Of a stretch of 15,599 nucleotides of DNA, positions 2,448-15,599 are shown in pieces; position 1 is the first letter of the stretch, and each line of letters opens with the position of its first letter. The translations under genes were made by a program, and so were the position numbers. The DNA is from a virus, in the IMG/VR virus record IMGVR_UViG_3300037175_000342, positions 1 to 15,599 of that record. One strand, given 5' to 3'. The notes under the pieces are model-generated. The model did no database searches, had not been told where the DNA came from, and saw nothing but the letters and a program-made list of their open reading frames with translations.

Positions 2448-3125
2448 TCATCCGGCCGACAAGTGACTATTTGAACCCATCCCCGCCATCAACCCATCGC
2501 GCACACTCTGCGCCGTGCGGCCAATGGTGGCCAGCGTCGGATCGCTCACCGCGCGGTGAATCTGGTTCACTTGCTCCAGAAATTCCTCGCGACGCCGCTC
2601 TTCCGCCACCCGATGCCGGTACAGCGCCAGCCGCAGCCGCGACACCTCGTCCATTTCCATCTCGGCGCGCGCGCGGATCCACTTCAAAATCTCTTCCTTC
2701 CAAAAGTCCGTAGGCGGTAACTCGGCGTAAAACTCATCGTTCGCCATCTGGTAGTCTCCGTGCCGCGGAAACTCGCCCATCATCTGTGTCACGCCGTCCT
2801 GGCTGGTCTCGTGTTCCCAGTCCGCCAGCGCGCCCCACGTCGACGCCGGGAACCACCGCTCCAGGCAGTAGCCCTTCCCCTCGTAGCGCGGTACCCACAT
2901 CTCGCCGGCACTGAATCCTTCTGGCTCGATTTCCATATCGGGGGTTACGTAATCGACGTTCACCTGCGGCATGTGCCGCATCTGGCCAAAGCGCTGATCA
3001 AATACATTCTGCGCTAGCACCACGCGCCACACCGGCCCGCCAAACGGGTTCAGGCCGCCAAAGCGAGTAATCTCTTTGGTAAGCGCCGGCCGTATGTCGA
3101 GCAGTGCCCGTTCACGCGGATGCAT
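2448..3125 (-). CDS. hypothetical protein (225 aa)
   Basis: Track ORF. ATG 3125 is preceded by GGAGAACTA and sits immediately after the post-capsid hairpin and U5 run. No recognisable family. Confidence 0.65.
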   Translation of the reverse strand: MHPRERALLDIRPALTKEITRFGGLNPFGGPVWRVVLAQNVFDQRFGQMRHMPQVNVDYVTPDMEIEPEGFSAGEMWVPRYEGKGYCLERWFPASTWGALADWEHETSQDGVTQMMGEFPRHGDYQMANDEFYAELPPTDFWKEEILKWIRARAEMEMDEVSRLRLALYRHRVAEERRREEFLEQVNQIHRAVSDPTLATIGRTAQSVRDGLMAGMGSNSHLSAG

Positions 3126-3136
3126 TAGTTCTCCAG

Positions 3137-3175
3137 AAAAACCGGCTGGGACGGCAGGTTCGCCGCCCCGCCCGG
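3137..3175 (-). terminator. intrinsic terminator after the capsid-like gene
   Basis: Sense sequence is CCGGGCGGGGCGGCG-AAC-CTGCCGTCCCAGCCGG-TTTTT. The pairing is 4 bp, a 2x2 mismatch, then 9 bp (two G:U), followed by U5. The next RBS comes directly after. Confidence 0.55.
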
Positions 3176-3180
3176 TTGTT

Positions 3181-3215
3181 AGCTAAAAGCTGAAAGCTGA
3201 AAGCTAATAGCTGTT
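3181..3215. repeat. phased heptad tract x5
   Basis: Plus strand reads agctaaa agctgaa agctgaa agctaat agctgtt. Sense reads CAG-CUAU-UAG-CUUU-CAG-CUUU-CAG-CUUU-UAG-CUAA. It starts 1 nt after the capsid-like gene's stop codon. Confidence 0.85.
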
Positions 3216-3216
3216 C

Positions 3217-4521
3217 TTAAACCGCGTCCGCAAAGGCAGGGTTGATGCCCAGCGTGGTGATGACGCCGTTCCACCAGGGCAGCTTGCCGTAGTAGTTACT
3301 GCTGTCCTGGTAGTACATGTCGAACTCGCTCAGCCAGCGGCCGTTCGGGTCCATCTTCGGCCACCAGAGACTCTGGCCCCCGCCAAAGGGCAAAAACTTC
3401 TGCGAACCCGGATACCGCACGGCCCGCAAACCGCTCTTGCGCAGCGAGTACAACTTGTCGATCGCGGCAGTCGATTCCGTGATCACCTTCCGGCCAGAAA
3501 TCACCCACTCGTCGGTGCCCCGCGGCCCAATGTCGTAGTTGGCATTCTTGCCGTTCTCCAGGAAGTACGTGCTCTTCGCAAAGCCCAGCGTCTCAGCCGA
3601 GGTCGCCTGCGCAAAGTGGGTGTACCAGAAGCAGTCGTCGCCGCCGTCCATCCAGCTTGCGGTACCCAGGGCCTGCTGCTGCCGCGCCTTGAAGATCGAT
3701 ACGGTACCCAGCGTCAGGGTGCCGTTGGCCGCATTCAGCGCCGGTGCCTGCACCCAACTCAGGCTGCGGTCCACGCCGTCGTAGTCGCCCACGTTCGACG
3801 GGTCCACAATGTACTCGAGGCCTTGCAGCCACAGCGGCGTGCCGCTGGTCACGCCCGTCGGGATAAAGTTGCATCCCGCGGCCAGGCCAACCGGCACGTT
3901 GTCGATGGTCACCGTATCCCCGGCGCCGATCGACGTTGAGAATTTGTCGGTGGTGGTTACCGTGCCAATCACGTTCAGGTTGGCGTCGGTCACCTGGTAT
4001 TTTTCGTAGGCGTCAATCAGGCGCGCGCCAAAGCTCACGTTCGCCATCGGCACAATGTTGCCGCCGGCATACGACGCGTCCACGGTGCCAAGCACGCCGT
4101 TGTTGAAGCCCTGCAGATAGGTGTCGCGGCTGTGGCCGTGCTTTGTTTTGGCGTCGTTCACCATGCGCGCCACCGGATCCACGGCGCTGATCTGTTTGCC
4201 GCCCTCGGCAATCCACTTCATCAACTGGGTCGCATTCCAGGCAGAAATCACCGGCACGGGCGAGATAATGAACTGCGAATAGCCGGGGCCAATGCCCTGG
4301 GGCAACGAGCCGCCGTCCGGCTGCCAGCCTCCGGAGTGGCCGCCAATCGAGAACTGAATCCCGTGACGGTATTCCTGGAGGGATACGTCGGAGCCTTTTT
4401 CCACTCCAAACATCTTTTCGAGCGCGCCGTCCATGTTCTGGCTCAGCTCGATATCGTCCGCTACAACCTGCAAGTCCAGCGGCAACTGCGCAACAGCAGT
4501 GCCAAAATCTTGAACGGCCAT
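3217..4521 (-). CDS. putative major capsid protein (434 aa)
   Basis: Track ORF. ATG 4521 is preceded by AAGGAGAATGCG. The call rests on size and position: after the scaffold-like gene, behind a 300-nt leader, and followed by a hairpin+U5 terminator. There is no motif-level proof. Fold recognition (HK97 fold) is needed. Confidence 0.5.
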   Translation of the reverse strand: MAVQDFGTAVAQLPLDLQVVADDIELSQNMDGALEKMFGVEKGSDVSLQEYRHGIQFSIGGHSGGWQPDGGSLPQGIGPGYSQFIISPVPVISAWNATQLMKWIAEGGKQISAVDPVARMVNDAKTKHGHSRDTYLQGFNNGVLGTVDASYAGGNIVPMANVSFGARLIDAYEKYQVTDANLNVIGTVTTTDKFSTSIGAGDTVTIDNVPVGLAAGCNFIPTGVTSGTPLWLQGLEYIVDPSNVGDYDGVDRSLSWVQAPALNAANGTLTLGTVSIFKARQQQALGTASWMDGGDDCFWYTHFAQATSAETLGFAKSTYFLENGKNANYDIGPRGTDEWVISGRKVITESTAAIDKLYSLRKSGLRAVRYPGSQKFLPFGGGQSLWWPKMDPNGRWLSEFDMYYQDSSNYYGKLPWWNGVITTLGINPAFADAV

Positions 4522-7467: not shown

Positions 7468-7502
7468 TTCTGATCACTAACCACTGTGCACTGATCACTG
7501 CT
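7468..7502. repeat. phased heptad tract x5
   Basis: Plus strand reads ttctgat cactaac cactgtg cactgat cactgct. Sense reads CAG-UGAU-CAG-UGCA-CAG-UGGU-UAG-UGAU-CAG. It overlaps the portal-like gene's stop codon and precedes the 261-aa gene's RBS. Confidence 0.85.
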
Positions 7503-10053
7503 TTAAAAGCTGCGTTTCCACCTTGCCCGCAGTGTCGATTACCTTGCCGGCCGCCGCTACCTGGCCCGTAATCGTCCCTGAAGTCATCGCCGGATCAATC
7601 GCCGCCAGCCGCTCGCACAGCAGCACCATGTCCGCCGCCGCGCTACGCAGCATTCCCAAAGTCTGCTGCTGTACGGGCGCGTTCGGATCCGGCGGCTGGC
7701 TGGCAGCCTTCACCTTCAAGTCGAGCCCCGCCTTGCGCACGCCCTGCTGCGCCTGCATATCCTGACACATGCCAAAGTACTGCTCAATCTGGCTGTAGCC
7801 CACCGGATTCTTGATGCGCAGATCGGCGTTCTCAATGTAGAACTCGGTGATGGTCGGAATCACCACATCGAAGTTCTCCATGATTGAGGGTTCCACCGGC
7901 AGCTTCGACCCGATCGAGCCGTCGTCGTTCATCACCGGCATCGCCGTCTGCTCCAGCAGCGTGTTCATGTCCTCGAGCGTCTTGGCCCGCTGCGCGCTCA
8001 CTGGGCTCACAATGCCGGGGTAGAGTGTTGCTCCAATCACTTCCTGATTTGCCGGAACGTCGAAGATCGCCTGCGCCACCGGATTGCCCGCACTTAGCTC
8101 CTTCACCAGCATGTTGAAGCTCTCGCGGATCTGCTGCGGCGTCTGCGGCAGGCTCTGGTCTTCGTCCGGATACACCTTCACGCGGCCCTGCATCTTTTGC
8201 AGGTTCACATAGTTGGTGCGGAACTGCGCACCCTTATCCTGGATAACTTCGCTGATCTCCTGTGCCGCGCCGCACTTCAGCAGCACGGTCAGGCACTCAA
8301 TCGCGTTCTGGGCTGCTGCCGCGTGCTCTTCCTTTACATTCTCCCAGAAGGGCTCCAGGCCTGTCTGCCCGGATTGCTGCTGAATCTCCTGGCCGCCCAG
8401 CGTCTCCACGCCCGGTGTCGTGCCGTTGCCCGCCAGTTGCGCCGGCAGTCCGTTCAGCATCTGCGCAAAGTTCAGCAACATGCTCGGATACATCCCAAGC
8501 GCCGGATTGACCGGAATGTCGTAGTGCAAAAACGCTTCCTGCAAAGTCCGCTGCGATGCGCCAAACTTTGTGGGCACCGGTATCACCGTCGCCGGGGCCA
8601 GCGTGTTGCCCTTCCACTGGTCGCTGTCGATCATCGCCGCGTCAATCAGGTTCAGGCCGCAGCTCGCGCGCATCATCCAGTCGTCGTAGAGATACATCGC
8701 GTTGTTAAACCGCTCGTTAAAGCTGGTCACATTCTCGGCGATGCTCTGGGAGTAGATGCCGAAGTTCTCAAACAGCCGCCCCAGCGTCCACTCCTTCGTG
8801 AGGACGGCTTTCTTCACGCCCACCACTTCGCCGCCGATCATGGTCAACTTCAACCCGTCCGGCGCCGCCGCCATCATGCGCGCGGCATACTCGCGGTCGC
8901 CGGTGCGCATGTAGCTGGTCGGCTGCATCCACGCCTGGCCATACGTTGGCTTCTGCTGGTCCGTGTCGCTCGTGTATCCGGTGCCCATGGAGTAGCTTTC
9001 GCTTCTCCGTAGCTTGTCATAGCTCGCGTTCTCCGCGGTCGTCGACTCGGCGCCTTCCTTGATCTGGCCCCAGGCGTCCGGAAACATCATGCGCGCTTCG
9101 CCGATGTCGATTTCATAGTCAAAGGCCAGAATCGGCGTGCCGTCCAGGTCCTTTGCCATCGGGTCGCAATCCACCTCGAGCGGCGAGTGGATCGTTTGCT
9201 TCACCATGGCGCGCGGAATCTTCTCCATCTGCACCACGCCGAGCCGCGCCTTCGTCTCGCTCGGGTAGAAGCTGTCCTCGCGCATCTGCCGCTTGCAACC
9301 GGGGCACTCGGCGCCACTCTCGTCCATTTGCAGATCGTCGACCGGGGTTTCCCGGCCGCACCCCAAGCACCGCATCCGGTCGGGCAGTTTGATCTGCATC
9401 TCGCCCATCACCGGCTGAGTGTCGTATCCGCTCCAGCGTCCGTCCAGCACGCCGCGGGTGAATTTAAAGTAGGTCCCGTAGAGATACAGCATTTCAAACT
9501 CGCCGCGCACCATCTGGCGAATCTTGTTGCGCCGCTCAATGATACCCACCGCGTCCTGCGCCGCCGCCGCCGTCGTAATGTCGGCCAGGATGCGCGCGTC
9601 TTGCGGCTTCACCACGGTGTTGGGCACCTCGCGGCTCATGTTACCCACAAAGGTCTGCCCCAGTAATAGCGTCAACGGATGGATAAAGCGCTGCAGGTGC
9701 ACGCTCTCGCCGTCGCGCACTTTATCCGAGCCCTGATACCATGCCAGCGCGTCCACCCAGTTGCCGGTGTCCTGATTCCAGTCAATCACCTGAATGTTGC
9801 GGTAGAACATAACGTTTTTCAGCCATATCTGCATCCGCCGCAACCGGTCCGTGCCCCACTGGTTGCGATACATGCTGATGATCTTGACGCATTGCTGAAT
9901 GTCTTCTTTCGTCAAGTCGAGCTGCATCCACTGGTCTTGCCCGGTGCCCTGCGCGGGGTTCTCCGGGCTGACCGCGGCAACCTCGCTCGCCTGTGATCGC
10001 CCAGGGTCGGCGTTCGGCACCTTCATCGGCAACAGACTCGCTCCAGCGGCCAT
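7495..10053 (-). CDS. putative portal protein (852 aa) with inserted CxxC-x17-CxxC zinc ribbon
   Basis: This is the largest ORF. ATG 10053 is preceded by GGAGTGAGCTA. It lies directly upstream of the scaffold- and capsid-like genes. I found no Walker A motif, so it is not a terminase. The zinc ribbon CLGC...CPGC is at nt 9295..9369. The portal call is positional. Confidence 0.5.
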   Translation of the reverse strand: MAAGASLLPMKVPNADPGRSQASEVAAVSPENPAQGTGQDQWMQLDLTKEDIQQCVKIISMYRNQWGTDRLRRMQIWLKNVMFYRNIQVIDWNQDTGNWVDALAWYQGSDKVRDGESVHLQRFIHPLTLLLGQTFVGNMSREVPNTVVKPQDARILADITTAAAAQDAVGIIERRNKIRQMVRGEFEMLYLYGTYFKFTRGVLDGRWSGYDTQPVMGEMQIKLPDRMRCLGCGRETPVDDLQMDESGAECPGCKRQMREDSFYPSETKARLGVVQMEKIPRAMVKQTIHSPLEVDCDPMAKDLDGTPILAFDYEIDIGEARMMFPDAWGQIKEGAESTTAENASYDKLRRSESYSMGTGYTSDTDQQKPTYGQAWMQPTSYMRTGDREYAARMMAAAPDGLKLTMIGGEVVGVKKAVLTKEWTLGRLFENFGIYSQSIAENVTSFNERFNNAMYLYDDWMMRASCGLNLIDAAMIDSDQWKGNTLAPATVIPVPTKFGASQRTLQEAFLHYDIPVNPALGMYPSMLLNFAQMLNGLPAQLAGNGTTPGVETLGGQEIQQQSGQTGLEPFWENVKEEHAAAAQNAIECLTVLLKCGAAQEISEVIQDKGAQFRTNYVNLQKMQGRVKVYPDEDQSLPQTPQQIRESFNMLVKELSAGNPVAQAIFDVPANQEVIGATLYPGIVSPVSAQRAKTLEDMNTLLEQTAMPVMNDDGSIGSKLPVEPSIMENFDVVIPTITEFYIENADLRIKNPVGYSQIEQYFGMCQDMQAQQGVRKAGLDLKVKAASQPPDPNAPVQQQTLGMLRSAAADMVLLCERLAAIDPAMTSGTITGQVAAAGKVIDTAGKVETQLLKQ

Positions 10054-11080: not shown

Positions 11081-11560
11081 CTAACTATTTGTGCCCAACA
11101 ACTCATGGTACTTCGCTTCGAGTGTAGCCATTGAGTGCCCCCCCTGTCCATATGCGTTTCCAGGGAAGCTCGCCCAAATGTTTGCGCAGGCCTCAATTGC
11201 CCCGCCAATATCGCCCGCCTCAATCTTTTCCAACGCGCCGCGTTCCTTCATTTGCTGCAACGCCACCGCATCCTGACTGTTCGGGCTAAAGTCCGGTAGA
11301 TGCAACTGCTTTTTGTAGGCGCGCCAGTATCGCGCAAGAATCTGATAGCGGCCGGCGGCCGACGACACCAGTCGCGGCGATTCACGCACCACCACCACAC
11401 CGCCCAACGCAAACGGATGGTCGGCGTAGTTTGTGAACACGGACGGACCCTCCACGCCGGTCACAATCACGTCGTAGCCTTGATTCTCCGTGAGCGGGCT
11501 CGTGCTGGTTCCCTCACTCCATCCAATCAAGTCGAAAAACGCTTTTTGCTTGGCGTCCAT
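11081..11560 (-). CDS. endolysin, phage lambda R-like lytic transglycosylase (GH104)
   Basis: The 159 aa match lambda R (recalled from memory) along the whole length. Matches include KAFFDLIGWSEGT (lambda KAFLDMLAWSEGT, catalytic Glu), GYDVIV, AGRYQILARYWRAYKKQLHLPDFSPNSQDAVALQQMKERGAL and IWASFPG. The RBS GAAGGAATTGA precedes the ATG. Confidence 0.9.
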   Translation of the reverse strand: MDAKQKAFFDLIGWSEGTSTSPLTENQGYDVIVTGVEGPSVFTNYADHPFALGGVVVVRESPRLVSSAAGRYQILARYWRAYKKQLHLPDFSPNSQDAVALQQMKERGALEKIEAGDIGGAIEACANIWASFPGNAYGQGGHSMATLEAKYHELLGTNS

Positions 11561-13562: not shown

Positions 13563-13847
13563 TCAGATTGTAAGCCCCATTTTCTTCATGAGGATCAAAT
13601 CTTCCGTCGTGAATTCTGAACCGGGATACTCGATGCCTTGTTCCGCCAAGATAGCATCCATTGACAATATCTTGACATAGGGTTGGTATCTTTCCATCAA
13701 CTCTGGAAAGTCCTTCCACCGCCGCATGTGGTTTGCCTTAGACATCTGCGCACCGCGCCATGTTGAGCAAACCTTTGTTCCCTCAAGTTTTCTGCGGCTG
13801 AAATGGAGCACAAGGTATTTCGCATCCCCCAAAACAGGCTCTGCCAT
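13563..13847 (-). CDS. hypothetical protein (94 aa)
   Basis: Track ORF. The ATG overlaps the peptidase stop (TAATG). The segment is AT-richer (rows 13601-13720 are 42-52% GC by my count). No family recognised. Confidence 0.55.
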   Translation of the reverse strand: MAEPVLGDAKYLVLHFSRRKLEGTKVCSTWRGAQMSKANHMRRWKDFPELMERYQPYVKILSMDAILAEQGIEYPGSEFTTEDLILMKKMGLTI

Positions 13848-15599
13848 TAGAGTGCTTTCTGCGCCGCCAGCAGCGCGTTGAGATCGACTCCCGAAGGCGT
13901 CTGGCCGGTTTCAGATTCAACCCATGCGGGGGTCGTTACTATGTAGTCTTCATCTGCCAGTTTCAGCGAGAACTCCCAGGTGCCCTTGATCCAGAGGCCC
14001 CATGAGCCAATGTGCCAGCCTGCCCCACCTTGGCCGGCGCGATTGATGCCGTGACCACCCACGATAGGAGAATCCGGAACATAGGTCCAGTTAGACGTGT
14101 CGTCCTCAGCAGATCGCGGGCACTGGATGCCCATCAGCGTCCCGCCGAACAGGTCGCAGGCATACCGTTGCTGTGCGACCGAACCCAGATCGAGCGATGC
14201 CCAGCCAAAAATCTGATGAATGACTTCCTTGCCGTTCTTGTCGAGCAGCGGGATGCCGTGCTTCTTCCAATAGGCCAGCGCGTCGGTCCAGGCGGTGCCC
14301 TGGTCTGTACTTGGGTCTTTGGGGTCGTATCCGGTGATAGCTGAATAGACCTCAACGGTTAGTTGCCTTGTTGGGGTCAACGGGTTGGACGTGTTCGCCG
14401 TCTCTTCCTGCGCGTAGTGCATCATGGCGGCGATAACGCAGTTATGTGATATAATGCCGTCAGACACATACCATCTTGATTCAGATGAAAGGTCGTAAAT
14501 ATGGCCCACAAACTGATCCACTTCAACCTTGACCACGCGATCAAACTCTACGAGTCCGGGAAATCTCTGGCTCAGGTTGCCGACGAGATCGGCATCTGTT
14601 CTTACGCCACCATCGGCAGAAGGATGATCAAAGCTGGCATCAAACTTCGCACGATGGAGCGAGTGGCTAGCTTGCGTCTCACCAAGAGAATGGAAGATGT
14701 CATCGCCCGTGGGGTGGGACGCTACTTGGCAGGCGAGACGATAAATGATCTCTGCGCGGAACTGGGCGTTGGACGGCGACTTTTTCAAAAGGCCGTTATT
14801 ACTGCTGGCTACGAACTGAGAACCCAAGCGAGGTCCTTGGGCTTGCGCTACAACCGAATGAGTCTTTCCGAACGAGCCGCCATCACTACTGCCGCCAACG
14901 CCGCTATGAGGGGCAAGCCTGCTTCTGCGGGACGCATGGCGCAACGCGCCGCCACGAACGAAAGAACGCTCCAACTTGCCAGCCGAGCGGATCTCATCCT
15001 GAGTGTTTGGCTGGCTCAGAGAGGAATCCAGTTCACCGCGCAAAAGGCGCTCGGCCCGTACAACATCGACATTGCCATCGATGAACTCTCCGTCGCCGTG
15101 GAAGTAAACGGGGGATGGCACTACTTTGAGGGGAGAGCGGTCCCTGAGGCGCAACGCAGAGAATACCTCTTCAACCGGGGATGGCGTCTTATTGAAGTCA
15201 AGCTCACCGCGCCGGAGCTTAAGGTTTGGAAGTGGCTGCGCCCCGCGTGTGCCGACAAGGTAGTCGCCCTTCTTAATGAACTTCGCCAAGGCGAACCCGC
15301 TTGGGGTAAGCATTGCGTGCTTGGGGGTGACGGCGAGGTTCTTTCCTGATTCTGTCCAGATGCGAACAATGGGACCGCTATACGAAGCCCTGTACCCGGC
15401 CTGAATCCCCTCGCCGCTGACCGCCGTTCCCTCTACACAGCAATCGCCTAAAGTATCATTACCGAGAATATCCAACTTGTTCGCCGGGACAGCGTATTCC
15501 CAGCCGCGGGGATTGACTGCCGGCCAGGTTGTCGCCTTATCGAGAAAGTCTCCGAAAGCGGGCGTAGTCAGCAGCCGCTTGGGGTCTAGTTTTCCGAGC
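13847..15599 (-). CDS. papain-like (clan CA-like) cysteine peptidase, intein-containing, 5' partial
   Basis: The frame stays open upstream of the track's TTG (15475) to the window edge (LGKLDPKRLLTTPAFGDFLDKATTWPAVNPRGWEYAVPANK-LDILGND...). With the intein removed, the extein reads GNDTLGDC(C)VIAAMMHYAQ, then VGGHGINRAG, then IGSWGLW. These resemble the papain-family Cys, His and (N)SWG motifs. Confidence 0.75.
   Translation of the reverse strand, partial: LGKLDPKRLLTTPAFGDFLDKATTWPAVNPRGWEYAVPANKLDILGNDTLGDCCVEGTAVSGEGIQAGYRASYSGPIVRIWTESGKNLAVTPKHAMLTPSGFALAKFIKKGDYLVGTRGAQPLPNLKLRRGELDFNKTPSPVEEVFSALRLRDRSPLKVVPSPVYFHGDGEFIDGNVDVVRAERLLRGELDSSLSQPNTQDEIRSAGKLERSFVRGGALRHASRRSRLAPHSGVGGSSDGGSFGKTHSVVAQAQGPRLGSQFVASSNNGLLKKSPSNAQFRAEIIYRLACQVASHPTGDDIFHSLGETQASHSLHRAKFDASFDHPSADGGVRTDADLVGNLSQRFPGLVEFDRVVKVEVDQFVGHIYDLSSESRWYVSDGIISHNCVIAAMMHYAQEETANTSNPLTPTRQLTVEVYSAITGYDPKDPSTDQGTAWTDALAYWKKHGIPLLDKNGKEVIHQIFGWASLDLGSVAQQRYACDLFGGTLMGIQCPRSAEDDTSNWTYVPDSPIVGGHGINRAGQGGAGWHIGSWGLWIKGTWEFSLKLADEDYIVTTPAWVESETGQTPSGVDLNALLAAQKAL
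14447..14455 (+). promoter_or_regulatory. extended -10 promoter element TGaTATAAT for the endonuclease gene
   Basis: It is a perfect TG-n-TATAAT, 46 nt upstream of ATG 14501. There is no good -35, which extended -10 promoters tolerate. It is the reverse complement of the intein block G codons ATT ATA TCA (Ile-Ile-Ser). Confidence 0.4.
14501..15349 (+). CDS. free-standing homing-endonuclease-like protein: 2 HTH-like repeats + DUF559/Vsr-like PD-(D/E)xK nuclease domain (282 aa)
   Basis: This is the only credible plus-strand gene. The ATG follows AAAGG (8-nt spacer) and an in-frame stop. There are two repeats: SLAQVADEIGICSYATIGRRMIKAGIKLRT and TINDLCAELGVGRRLFQKAVITAGYELRT. The C-terminal LILSVWLAQRGIQFTAQKALGPYNIDIAIDELSVAVEVNGGWHY...AQRREYLFNRGWRLIEVK follows the DUF559 pattern (f..Q..ig.y.vDf...iaiEvDG..H...R...L...Gw.vlR). 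EVNG replaces the usual E.DG. The gene lies wholly inside the intein. Confidence 0.75.
   Translation: MAHKLIHFNLDHAIKLYESGKSLAQVADEIGICSYATIGRRMIKAGIKLRTMERVASLRLTKRMEDVIARGVGRYLAGETINDLCAELGVGRRLFQKAVITAGYELRTQARSLGLRYNRMSLSERAAITTAANAAMRGKPASAGRMAQRAATNERTLQLASRADLILSVWLAQRGIQFTAQKALGPYNIDIAIDELSVAVEVNGGWHYFEGRAVPEAQRREYLFNRGWRLIEVKLTAPELKVWKWLRPACADKVVALLNELRQGEPAWGKHCVLGGDGEVLS

Follow-up and report, generated by a model that had tools for sequence, protein, structure and literature searches.

Homing endonucleases encoded antisense to the intein that harbors them have been described previously. Gosselin, Arsenault and Gogarten (bioRxiv 10.1101/2025.01.02.630785; Gosselin et al. 2025) reported anti-sense VSR-like endonucleases in full inteins of actinobacteriophages, a layout which they label ‘rare’, and, as cited in their preprint, the anti-sense LAGLIDADG endonuclease of the dnaX intein from Synechocystis is credited to Gorbalenya (1998) and Gogarten et al. 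(2002). For the dnaX intein, frame-specific purifying selection and relaxed host-frame constraint in the overlap were described by Phillips et al. (bioRxiv 10.64898/2026.09.14.751524). Dassa et al. (2009, PMC2677866) found a Vsr-like or GIY-YIG endonuclease gene between the halves of split inteins, with all three open reading frames (ORFs) on one strand, and regarded Vsr-like endonucleases as ‘not known to be present in inteins’; both Dassa et al. and Gosselin et al. propose that a mini-intein was invaded by a free-standing endonuclease gene. Here we analyze a stretch of 15,599 nt of the viral record IMGVR_UViG_3300037175_000342 (the window, to which coordinates refer unless a locus is named), in which a minus-strand gene for a putative papain-fold cysteine peptidase is interrupted by an intein of 334 amino acids (aa), while the plus strand of that intein carries an ORF for a Vsr-like endonuclease. 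The locus is probably a mobile intein built on both DNA strands, with its homing endonuclease in antisense. An initial annotation, made from the letters of the window, knew of no described example of such a layout, and was preceded in this by Gosselin et al. (2025) and the dnaX case cited therein. The architecture is already known; what is new is the host gene, the non-actinophage setting and some of the mechanistic detail.

The minus-strand frame is free of stop codons from 13847 past the end of the window (15599); the ORF list and its translation show 583 of its codons, and it reads ...LGNDTLGD/CCVEGTAV...LAVTPKHAML...VGHIYDLSSESRWYVSDGIISHN/CVIAAMMHYAQ... (slashes mark intein junctions). 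The residues of a class-1 intein, namely Cys1, TPKH (within LAVTPKHAML), GHIYDL, SHN and Cys+1, are complete, and blocks A, B, F and G lie where the initial annotation had placed them (Table 1). The Pfam family Intein_splicing (PF14890) matches the intein alone at 37.3 bits against a cutoff of 35.8 and the whole visible ORF at 35.2 bits, slightly under that cutoff, and precomputed Pfam annotation assigns it to most of the homologues P0001-P0029. A construct with the linker deleted passes TIGR01443 (intein_Cterm), at 16.3 for a cutoff of 15.6; TIGR01445, for the N-terminal region, scores 15.8-17.3, under its cutoff of 24.5. Two insert-free homologues, P0019 and P0031, lack the 334 residues, align on both sides of them and read GDCVEA over the junction. 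Because these intein-less alleles read GDCVEA, the intein starts at the first Cys of the CC pair and the +1 Cys belongs to the host, which settles the choice between Cys12 and Cys13 that had been left to be fixed. The first Cys codon is thus 15442-15440 and the terminal Asn codon 14443-14441, with GHIYDLSSESRWYVSDGIISHN/C at the C-terminal end and junction; the intein-less junction DNA in the host gene is ...GGCGAT/TGCGTTATC....

The interrupted gene ends with a stop codon at 13847-13849 and its N-terminus lies past the window end; the full length of the host protein is given by P0001 (610 aa, 98% identical). In an alignment of 14 host proteins, which includes eleven homologues of 576-610 aa with like architecture in addition to the insert-free P0019 and P0031, C387 (the +1 Cys) and H516 are invariant in all members, those without the insert included. 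An AlphaFold model of the precursor places C387 at the N-terminus of a core helix (387-400), and the top PDB matches of this model in Foldseek are xylellain (3ois, E 3e-5, prob 1.0) and cathepsins K, S and L (template modeling (TM) score on target 0.5-0.58). The extein matches PHROG 19005, and the assignment to the papain fold comes from the fold search, because no Pfam family matches the spliced extein. Fold and conservation agree in supporting the original proposal of a papain-like peptidase with an intein at its likely catalytic Cys, and C387 would be the equivalent of papain Cys25. Peptidase activity would then depend on splicing, because the intein directly precedes this residue.

Between its two lobes, the intein is predicted to be disordered when read in the host frame. 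Precursor residues 118-335 have a pLDDT score (predicted local distance difference test) of about 22-35, or about 27 overall, and the intein N-lobe reaches about 60-70. For host-frame residues 167-333 (167 residues, from 14600-15100), a Pfam search gave nothing at E<=10. With no family match up to that E-value and a pLDDT of about 27, the idea that this minus-strand segment contains an in-frame endonuclease domain was rejected. A split intein or fractured gene was also rejected, the host frame being stop-free across the intein and the endonuclease gene lying on the opposite strand. The initial annotation had described the minus-frame middle as filler opposite the endonuclease gene; this holds insofar as the middle is disordered and unmatched, but the endonuclease ORF is not confined to it, overlapping block B and starting opposite the block F His.

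The plus-strand ORF encodes a 282-aa protein with the features first predicted for it, two helix-turn-helix (HTH) modules (about residues 10-44 and 81-101) and a Vsr/DUF559-type nuclease core (about residues 165-235, 14993-15205). A helical middle lies between these, and a folded C-terminal extension, which faces the intein N-lobe on the opposite strand, completes the layout. DUF559 (PF04480) matches at 25.0 bits (cutoff 20.6) and PF18741 at 22.3 bits, under its cutoff of 38.2; several HTH families match too, NCBIfam HTH_Cbp1 among those hit by the HTH modules. By sequence profile, the ORF is related to 2lvs (tandem HTH, Cbp1-like, E 7e-8) and to 3hrl (DUF559, E 0.012). An AlphaFold2 model computed from 21 sequences has a mean pLDDT of 88.2, and its top PDB folds in Foldseek are Vsr (1cw0, 1vsr) and the catalytic domain of I-Bth0305I (3r3p), all with prob 1.0 and with TM scores on target of 0.52-0.60. 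Across the endonuclease family, no variation is seen at N188, D190 and E201 and almost none at H207 (YNxDxA...VAVEVNGxWH). This putative catalytic motif aligns to the DUF559 motif of 3hrl.

The C-terminal GGDGE motif of the endonuclease (15317-15349 in the window, with equivalents in relatives) is the exact antisense of L-A/T-V-T-P in block B, and a free-standing relative, L081, reads GAGA where the nested copies have GGDGE. This suggests that some of the apparent conservation of the endonuclease stems from the intein and not from what the enzyme itself does. On the sense strand of the endonuclease ORF, 14578-14594 hold a terminator-like hairpin, TGCCGACGAGATCGGCA, with a T-rich run after it; terminator-like sites are no more frequent than in shuffled controls, and this one is probably due to chance.

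The plus ORF faces intein residues 33-314, from an overlap with block B to block F, with codon position 2 of one frame opposite position 2 of the other. In this antisense phase, any TTA, CTA or TCA codon of the endonuclease would read as a stop on the host strand. The gene in the window contains none of these, against 3.15 expected from the codon usage of flanking genes (P(0) about 0.04). A scan of IMG/VR with the endonuclease alignment returned 218 relatives, and 80 loci were retrieved, which together with the window and four loci from an exact protein match give 85 loci and 69 distinct genes. The comparison with relatives is consistent throughout: the antisense frame is open over the entire endonuclease match in 84 of the 85 loci and in the identical phase in all 84, at endonuclease identities down to 27% and with open host-strand ORFs of 338-1377 aa. 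The endonuclease gene is nested antisense in an intein in 68 of the 69 distinct genes; the plus ORF is broken in none of these 68, and together they hold no TTA, CTA or TCA codon against about 275 expected. The free-standing L081, with 10 such codons in 265, acts as a natural control for stop-codon avoidance. An open antisense frame as an artefact of G+C content was rejected by the family-wide counts and by L081. In related loci with readable flanks, the endonuclease gene is bordered by blocks A, B, F and G, and regular expressions delimited complete inteins in 71 of the 85, with boundaries that are wrong at a few loci (e.g. L003/L004) and served pooled statistics only. In all 71, the endonuclease stop codon is N-terminal to the block B His.

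The locus of L081 (2866-4345) has a 328-aa endonuclease ORF (2866-3852, plus strand) convergent to an intein-less MuF-like gene (3839-4345, minus strand), with a 14-nt 3' overlap. The MuF gene has an intact HPNCRC motif, the ends reading ...HPNCRCCLTFKVD / ...RHPNCRCCLTFKVD, and the endonuclease gene lies directly past this empty intein target motif. L081 may resemble a free-standing ancestor, and its place beside an empty MuF site fits an origin in which a free-standing endonuclease gene invaded a mini-intein.

Selection was assessed in nine close pairs (62-90% nucleotide identity) by divergence at each codon position and by amino-acid divergence in the two frames. At the ends of the intein, the fraction of sites that differ is 0.26-0.28 for host position 3 and 0.07-0.13 for position 1. 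The reverse holds for intein residues 81-295, where this fraction is 0.32-0.46 for host position 1, the third position of the endonuclease codons, and 0.17-0.36 for host position 3, and amino-acid divergence is greater in the host frame (0.34-0.55) than in the endonuclease frame (0.21-0.44). Because of this reversal, the middle of the intein is taken to be kept open yet not conserved as protein, unlike the endonuclease, which is; as judged from these substitutions, it evolves as endonuclease coding sequence and the ends as intein coding sequence. Intein residues 33-80, where the Hint N-lobe is opposite the endonuclease C-terminal extension, are constrained in both frames (0.16, 0.05, 0.20), and about 48 codons encode structured parts of both proteins.

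The candidate expression cassette (14447-15349) lies entirely inside the intein (14441-15442), and the Shine-Dalgarno (SD) sequence, ATG and -10 element pointed out in the initial annotation are present, antisense to blocks F and G (Table 1). The endonuclease-sense upstream regions of 57 distinct sequences were aligned, and codon bias was counted over 55 distinct inteins. Of 47 block F His codons, 42 are CAT, which gives ATG on the other strand, and 5 are CAC, which gives GTG (background CAT 0.38, p=4.5e-13). The family ribosome-binding consensus is GGAGG, 8 nt upstream and antisense to D-L-Q; with CTC as the block F Leu codon, the case in 45/54 (background 25%, p=7e-19), the site reads GGAGG or GGAGA. 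Most inteins ending in HN, the window included, have TATAAT or TACAAT ending 45 nt before the start, often with the TG of an extended -10. This element is antisense to G-I-I/V, for which Ile is ATA in 16/18 (vs 14%), Val is GTA in 7/10 (vs 10%) and Ile is ATT in 22/27 (vs 26%). Inteins ending in SN or KN have TTGACA-17-TATAAT ending 26 nt before the start, matched at 12/12 positions in eight loci, with Leu TTA in 12/17 against a background of 3.6%. The bias, which is largely toward rare codons, is strong evidence from sequence that codon choice maintains the antisense -10, ribosome-binding and start signals.

Table 1. Features of the two-strand intein locus in the window.
Feature	Coordinates	Strand	Basis or remark
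Host ORF, papain-fold putative cysteine peptidase precursor with intein	13847..15599	-	ORF list, translation
N-extein, partial, ends ...LGNDTLGD	15443..15599	-	Alignment with P0019, P0031 (GND..GDCVEA)
Class-1 intein, 334 aa	14441..15442	-	PF14890, motifs, insert-free alleles
Intein block A CCVEGTAV	15419-15442	-	Sequence
Intein block B TPKH	15317-15328	-	Sequence
Host-frame translation of intein middle, precursor residues 118-335	14594..15247	-	Predicted disordered; open, not conserved as protein
Intein block F GHIYDL	14489-14506	-	Sequence
Intein block G VSDGIISHN	14441-14467	-	Sequence
+1 Cys codon: C-extein nucleophile of the intein and invariant host Cys (likely catalytic)	14438..14440	-	Alignment, model
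C-extein, 197 aa, papain-like core, GGHG and SWG motifs	13850..14440	-	pLDDT 70-90; Foldseek papain-family matches
Candidate extended -10 TGaTATAAT (TATAAT 14450-14455)	14447..14455	+	Within intein, antisense to G-I-I-S of block G
Ribosome-binding site AAAGG, 8 nt 5' of ATG	14488..14492	+	Antisense to D-L-S of block F
Endonuclease start ATG, reverse complement of block F His codon CAT	14501..14503	+	Sequence
Homing-endonuclease gene, 282 aa and TGA 15347-15349	14501..15349	+	DUF559, fold, selection

These counts also bear on whether the endonuclease, though real, lacks a promoter of its own and is expressed by read-through or antisense transcription from outside, the motifs being by-products of the amino acids of blocks F and G. 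Those blocks are conserved as protein anyway, the window has a -10 without a -35 that a generic scan does not call, and three loci (L006, L010 and L046) have a poor -10 match at the fixed position. Amino-acid conservation, however, cannot explain the signals, because the bias sits at synonymous sites (toward ATA, GTA, TTA, CTC and CAT in the fractions given above), and eight loci have a perfect TTGACA-17-TATAAT at one fixed position. We consider expression from outside alone unlikely, and a cassette embedded in the splicing motifs the better account.

The intein-endonuclease pair is found in several host genes. The commonest are those for MuF-like head-morphogenesis proteins, with insertion at HPN/CRC; others are this peptidase family (GD/CV), a UDG/PolA protein and a mycobacteriophage capsid maturation protease. 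A tblastn search found the endonuclease in 70 GenBank phage records, antisense within MuF-like, head-morphogenesis or protease genes. Among the carriers are phages of Gordonia, Mycobacterium, Rhodococcus, Pseudomonas, Salmonella (Jersey-like), Klebsiella, Cronobacter, Vibrio and Idiomarinaceae and the Aggregatibacter/Haemophilus phage Aaphi23; individual examples are Gordonia phage Vivi2 (KU963250.1, 9316-10074), Aaphi23 (AJ560763.1, 24657-25334) and the vB_Pae_CF/BR phages of P. aeruginosa. Among the listed matches outside Rhizobium phages, the annotation is that of the host gene or a hypothetical protein and never an endonuclease; in the Vivi2 and Aaphi23 records, which were inspected, the host gene on the other strand is the sole annotated gene. 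A profile search of 1.84 billion representative proteins gave 1195 clusters at E<=1e-30.

The reverse annotation occurs in a Deltaproteobacteria metagenome-assembled genome (GCA_031285295.1, JAITWK010000033.1; L087:2626-4035), where NCBI calls the antisense endonuclease (P0058) a ‘hypothetical protein’ and leaves uncalled the 469-aa intein-bearing MuF-like ORF on the other strand. In NBSal007 the product name of the host gene, ‘NAD+--asparagine ADP-ribosyltransferase’, hints at a fusion of MuF with a toxin. The host ORFs of L037, L038, L045, L054, L067, L082, L062 and L021 span 999-1377 aa, and their inteins lie near residue 700-1000. These ORF lengths are stop-to-stop only, with some frames running off the locus, and the ORFs suggest MuF domains fused to large N-terminal regions of the portal-MuF or polymorphic-toxin type.

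We lean toward the view that a clade of Hint domains and a Vsr-like endonuclease form an old, near-obligate two-strand module, with its expression cassette in the antisense of blocks F and G and the endonuclease's C-terminal part dual-coded with the intein N-lobe, and that this module is far commoner in phages (218 IMG/VR loci, 70 GenBank phages, 1195 clusters) than the ‘rare’ of the preprint. The layout had at first been thought a possible intermediate between classical inteins and fractured genes. This is not favored, because the layout is stable across deep divergence: phase and arrangement are kept to 27% identity, in several host genes and with fixed signals, and it looks like a stable, long-lived design and not a passing stage.

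A long-lived and highly diverged module would also be expected if the endonuclease were functional and expressed but domesticated, as a DNA-binding regulator or an anti-competitor nuclease, with the intein inherited vertically. Its tandem HTH resembles those of DNA-binding regulators (2lvs, HTH_Cbp1), and Gosselin et al. see vertical-looking inheritance in several VSR-like intein groups. Against this, unrelated host genes and sites carry the same intein-endonuclease pair, close homologues exist as intein-less alleles, the nuclease residues are retained (D190 and E201 without exception, H207 nearly so), and the free-standing relative adjoins an empty HPNCRC site. Domestication is therefore quite improbable, and a homing enzyme fits better. 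It is also very unlikely that the insert does not splice, being either a tolerated loop in the mature protein or a cause of gene inactivation. The penultimate His is replaced by Ser or Lys in many relatives, and there is a precedent in the non-splicing ShiLan read-through insert, which hides an out-of-frame HNH (PMC11855218). The canonical class-1 residues, however, are complete in the window, the blocks are under host-frame purifying selection, and an insertion of 334 aa before an invariant Cys at the start of a core helix is incompatible with a papain fold. Hardly credible at all is a plus ORF that is a chance or decaying shadow frame opposite a real in-frame intein domain, with no endonuclease made: this antisense phase is often open by chance in G+C-rich DNA, expression of the endonuclease is something that we infer, and gene callers annotate one strand only in GenBank phages, but the plus frame matches curated families and folds (pLDDT 88) where the center of the minus frame is unmatched (about 27), central substitutions fall mostly at endonuclease codon position 3, and the family extends to the 1195 clusters at E<=1e-30 with plus-frame frameshifts or stops in 0/68 nested genes.

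Several points weigh against a mobile two-strand intein and keep our confidence short of certainty. Splicing, transcription from the predicted promoter, translation, cleavage specificity and homing are all steps that we infer. The fold matches of the endonuclease are modest (Foldseek E about 2e-3 to 6e-3, TM on query 0.23-0.31), the low TM on query arising because only the nuclease core aligns, and AlphaFold confidence for the intein N-lobe is only moderate, with 14 input sequences. Taken by itself, the open antisense frame of the window is weak evidence of anything other than chance. The binomial p-values for codon bias treat the 55 inteins as independent, though these are of common ancestry. 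A generic scan for sigma-70 promoters and terminators did not call the -10 at 14450-14455 and found no -35 match to it, returning only a weak unrelated site at 15432-15459 and the internal hairpin at 14578-14594; the AAAGG of the window is a weaker SD than the family consensus GGAGG; and the promoter calls are consensus matches, from which the promoter grammar of the bacterial hosts may differ.

A mechanism can be proposed for how such an element would persist. The peptidase precursor would be made from the minus strand, with the whole 334-aa insert translated as part of the host protein. The Hint lobes would fold around a disordered loop of about 220 residues, which is the read-through of the other gene's complement, and protein splicing would presumably remove the insert and restore GD-C-V and the active-site Cys. 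Separately, host RNA polymerase would transcribe the endonuclease gene from the promoter within block G. In co-infecting phages, the enzyme most likely cleaves host-gene alleles that lack the intein, whereupon recombinational repair would copy the intein and endonuclease gene into the cut allele (homing). If this is true, the intein's catalytic motifs and its endonuclease's expression lock each other in place, and any gene could be invaded by the unit, with no need for local signals.

The antisense Vsr-like intein is a large, conserved design that extends well beyond actinophages and into many metagenomic viruses. Promoter, SD and start appear inside the splicing motifs, which gives a concrete and testable account of how a hidden endonuclease may be expressed. 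The long antisense dual coding, with its fixed phase, stop avoidance and switch in selection, may serve as a benchmark for overlapping-gene methods and phage gene callers; tandem-HTH endonucleases are a pool of possible sequence-specific nucleases, and the seventy cultured-phage records are ready experimental systems.

The surroundings of the peptidase gene show few recognizable features. Its stop codon and the start codon of the minus-strand ORF that follows (13563-13847, 94 aa) share a base in TAATG (13845-13849; TAA 13849-13847, ATG 13847-13845), an arrangement typical of translational coupling. The only neighboring ORF matched in PHROG encodes an endolysin/lysozyme-like protein of 159 aa (11081-11560, minus strand; phrog_17029 E 3e-53, phrog_90 E 6e-50). 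Nine of the ten neighboring window ORFs scanned against PHROG were unmatched, including one of 852 aa at 7495-10053, and a nucleotide search with 13600-15599 found no match among GenBank phages. The window probably derives from a poorly sampled phage lineage.

Among known systems, the inteins of Gosselin et al. are the closest. They are likewise contiguous, with an antisense VSR-like endonuclease of EDxHD-like type (HHpred to 3R3P), and reside in MuF-like minor capsid and DNA polymerase genes; our tblastn search also matches MuF and protease genes of Gordonia and Mycobacterium phages. The present host gene, in contrast, encodes a papain-fold peptidase on an uncultured non-actinophage contig, and here the endonuclease ORF overlaps block B (71/71 inteins) and starts opposite block F. 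The text of Gosselin et al. makes no mention of a promoter, SD or start codon for the antisense endonuclease, nor of signals embedded in blocks F and G, a fixed phase, or stop-codon avoidance with a free-standing control. The cyanobacterial dnaX intein also has its endonuclease outside the intein frame and shows frame-specific purifying selection, but its nuclease is of the LAGLIDADG type, its host gene is cellular, and it has no tie to the MuF and peptidase inteins.

Other systems share single elements of this design. I-Bth0305I (3r3p; Taylor et al. 2011, PMC3239194), the second-best structural match, also combines a DNA-binding region with a Vsr-like catalytic domain; it resides, however, in a group I intron of a phage recA gene, on the same strand, and is about 14% identical to the plus ORF, whose catalytic strand VAVEVNG..H is DUF559-like and not a demonstrated EDxHD motif. 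In fractured genes, the host is broken into two trans-splicing polypeptides, whereas the present host frame runs on unbroken and its endonuclease gene is inverted. The ShiLan phage methylase insert (Arsenault et al. 2025, PMC11855218) similarly holds an endonuclease gene in an alternative frame of an insert that is open in the host frame, but on the same strand, with an HNH nuclease and no detectable splicing domain. No antisense endonuclease in an intein was found in Kelley et al. (2016). With canonical LAGLIDADG and HNH inteins, the present element has in common the Hint blocks and the extra sequence between the N- and C-terminal lobes; in those the endonuclease belongs to the intein polypeptide as one of its domains, and here it would be a separate protein made from the other strand.

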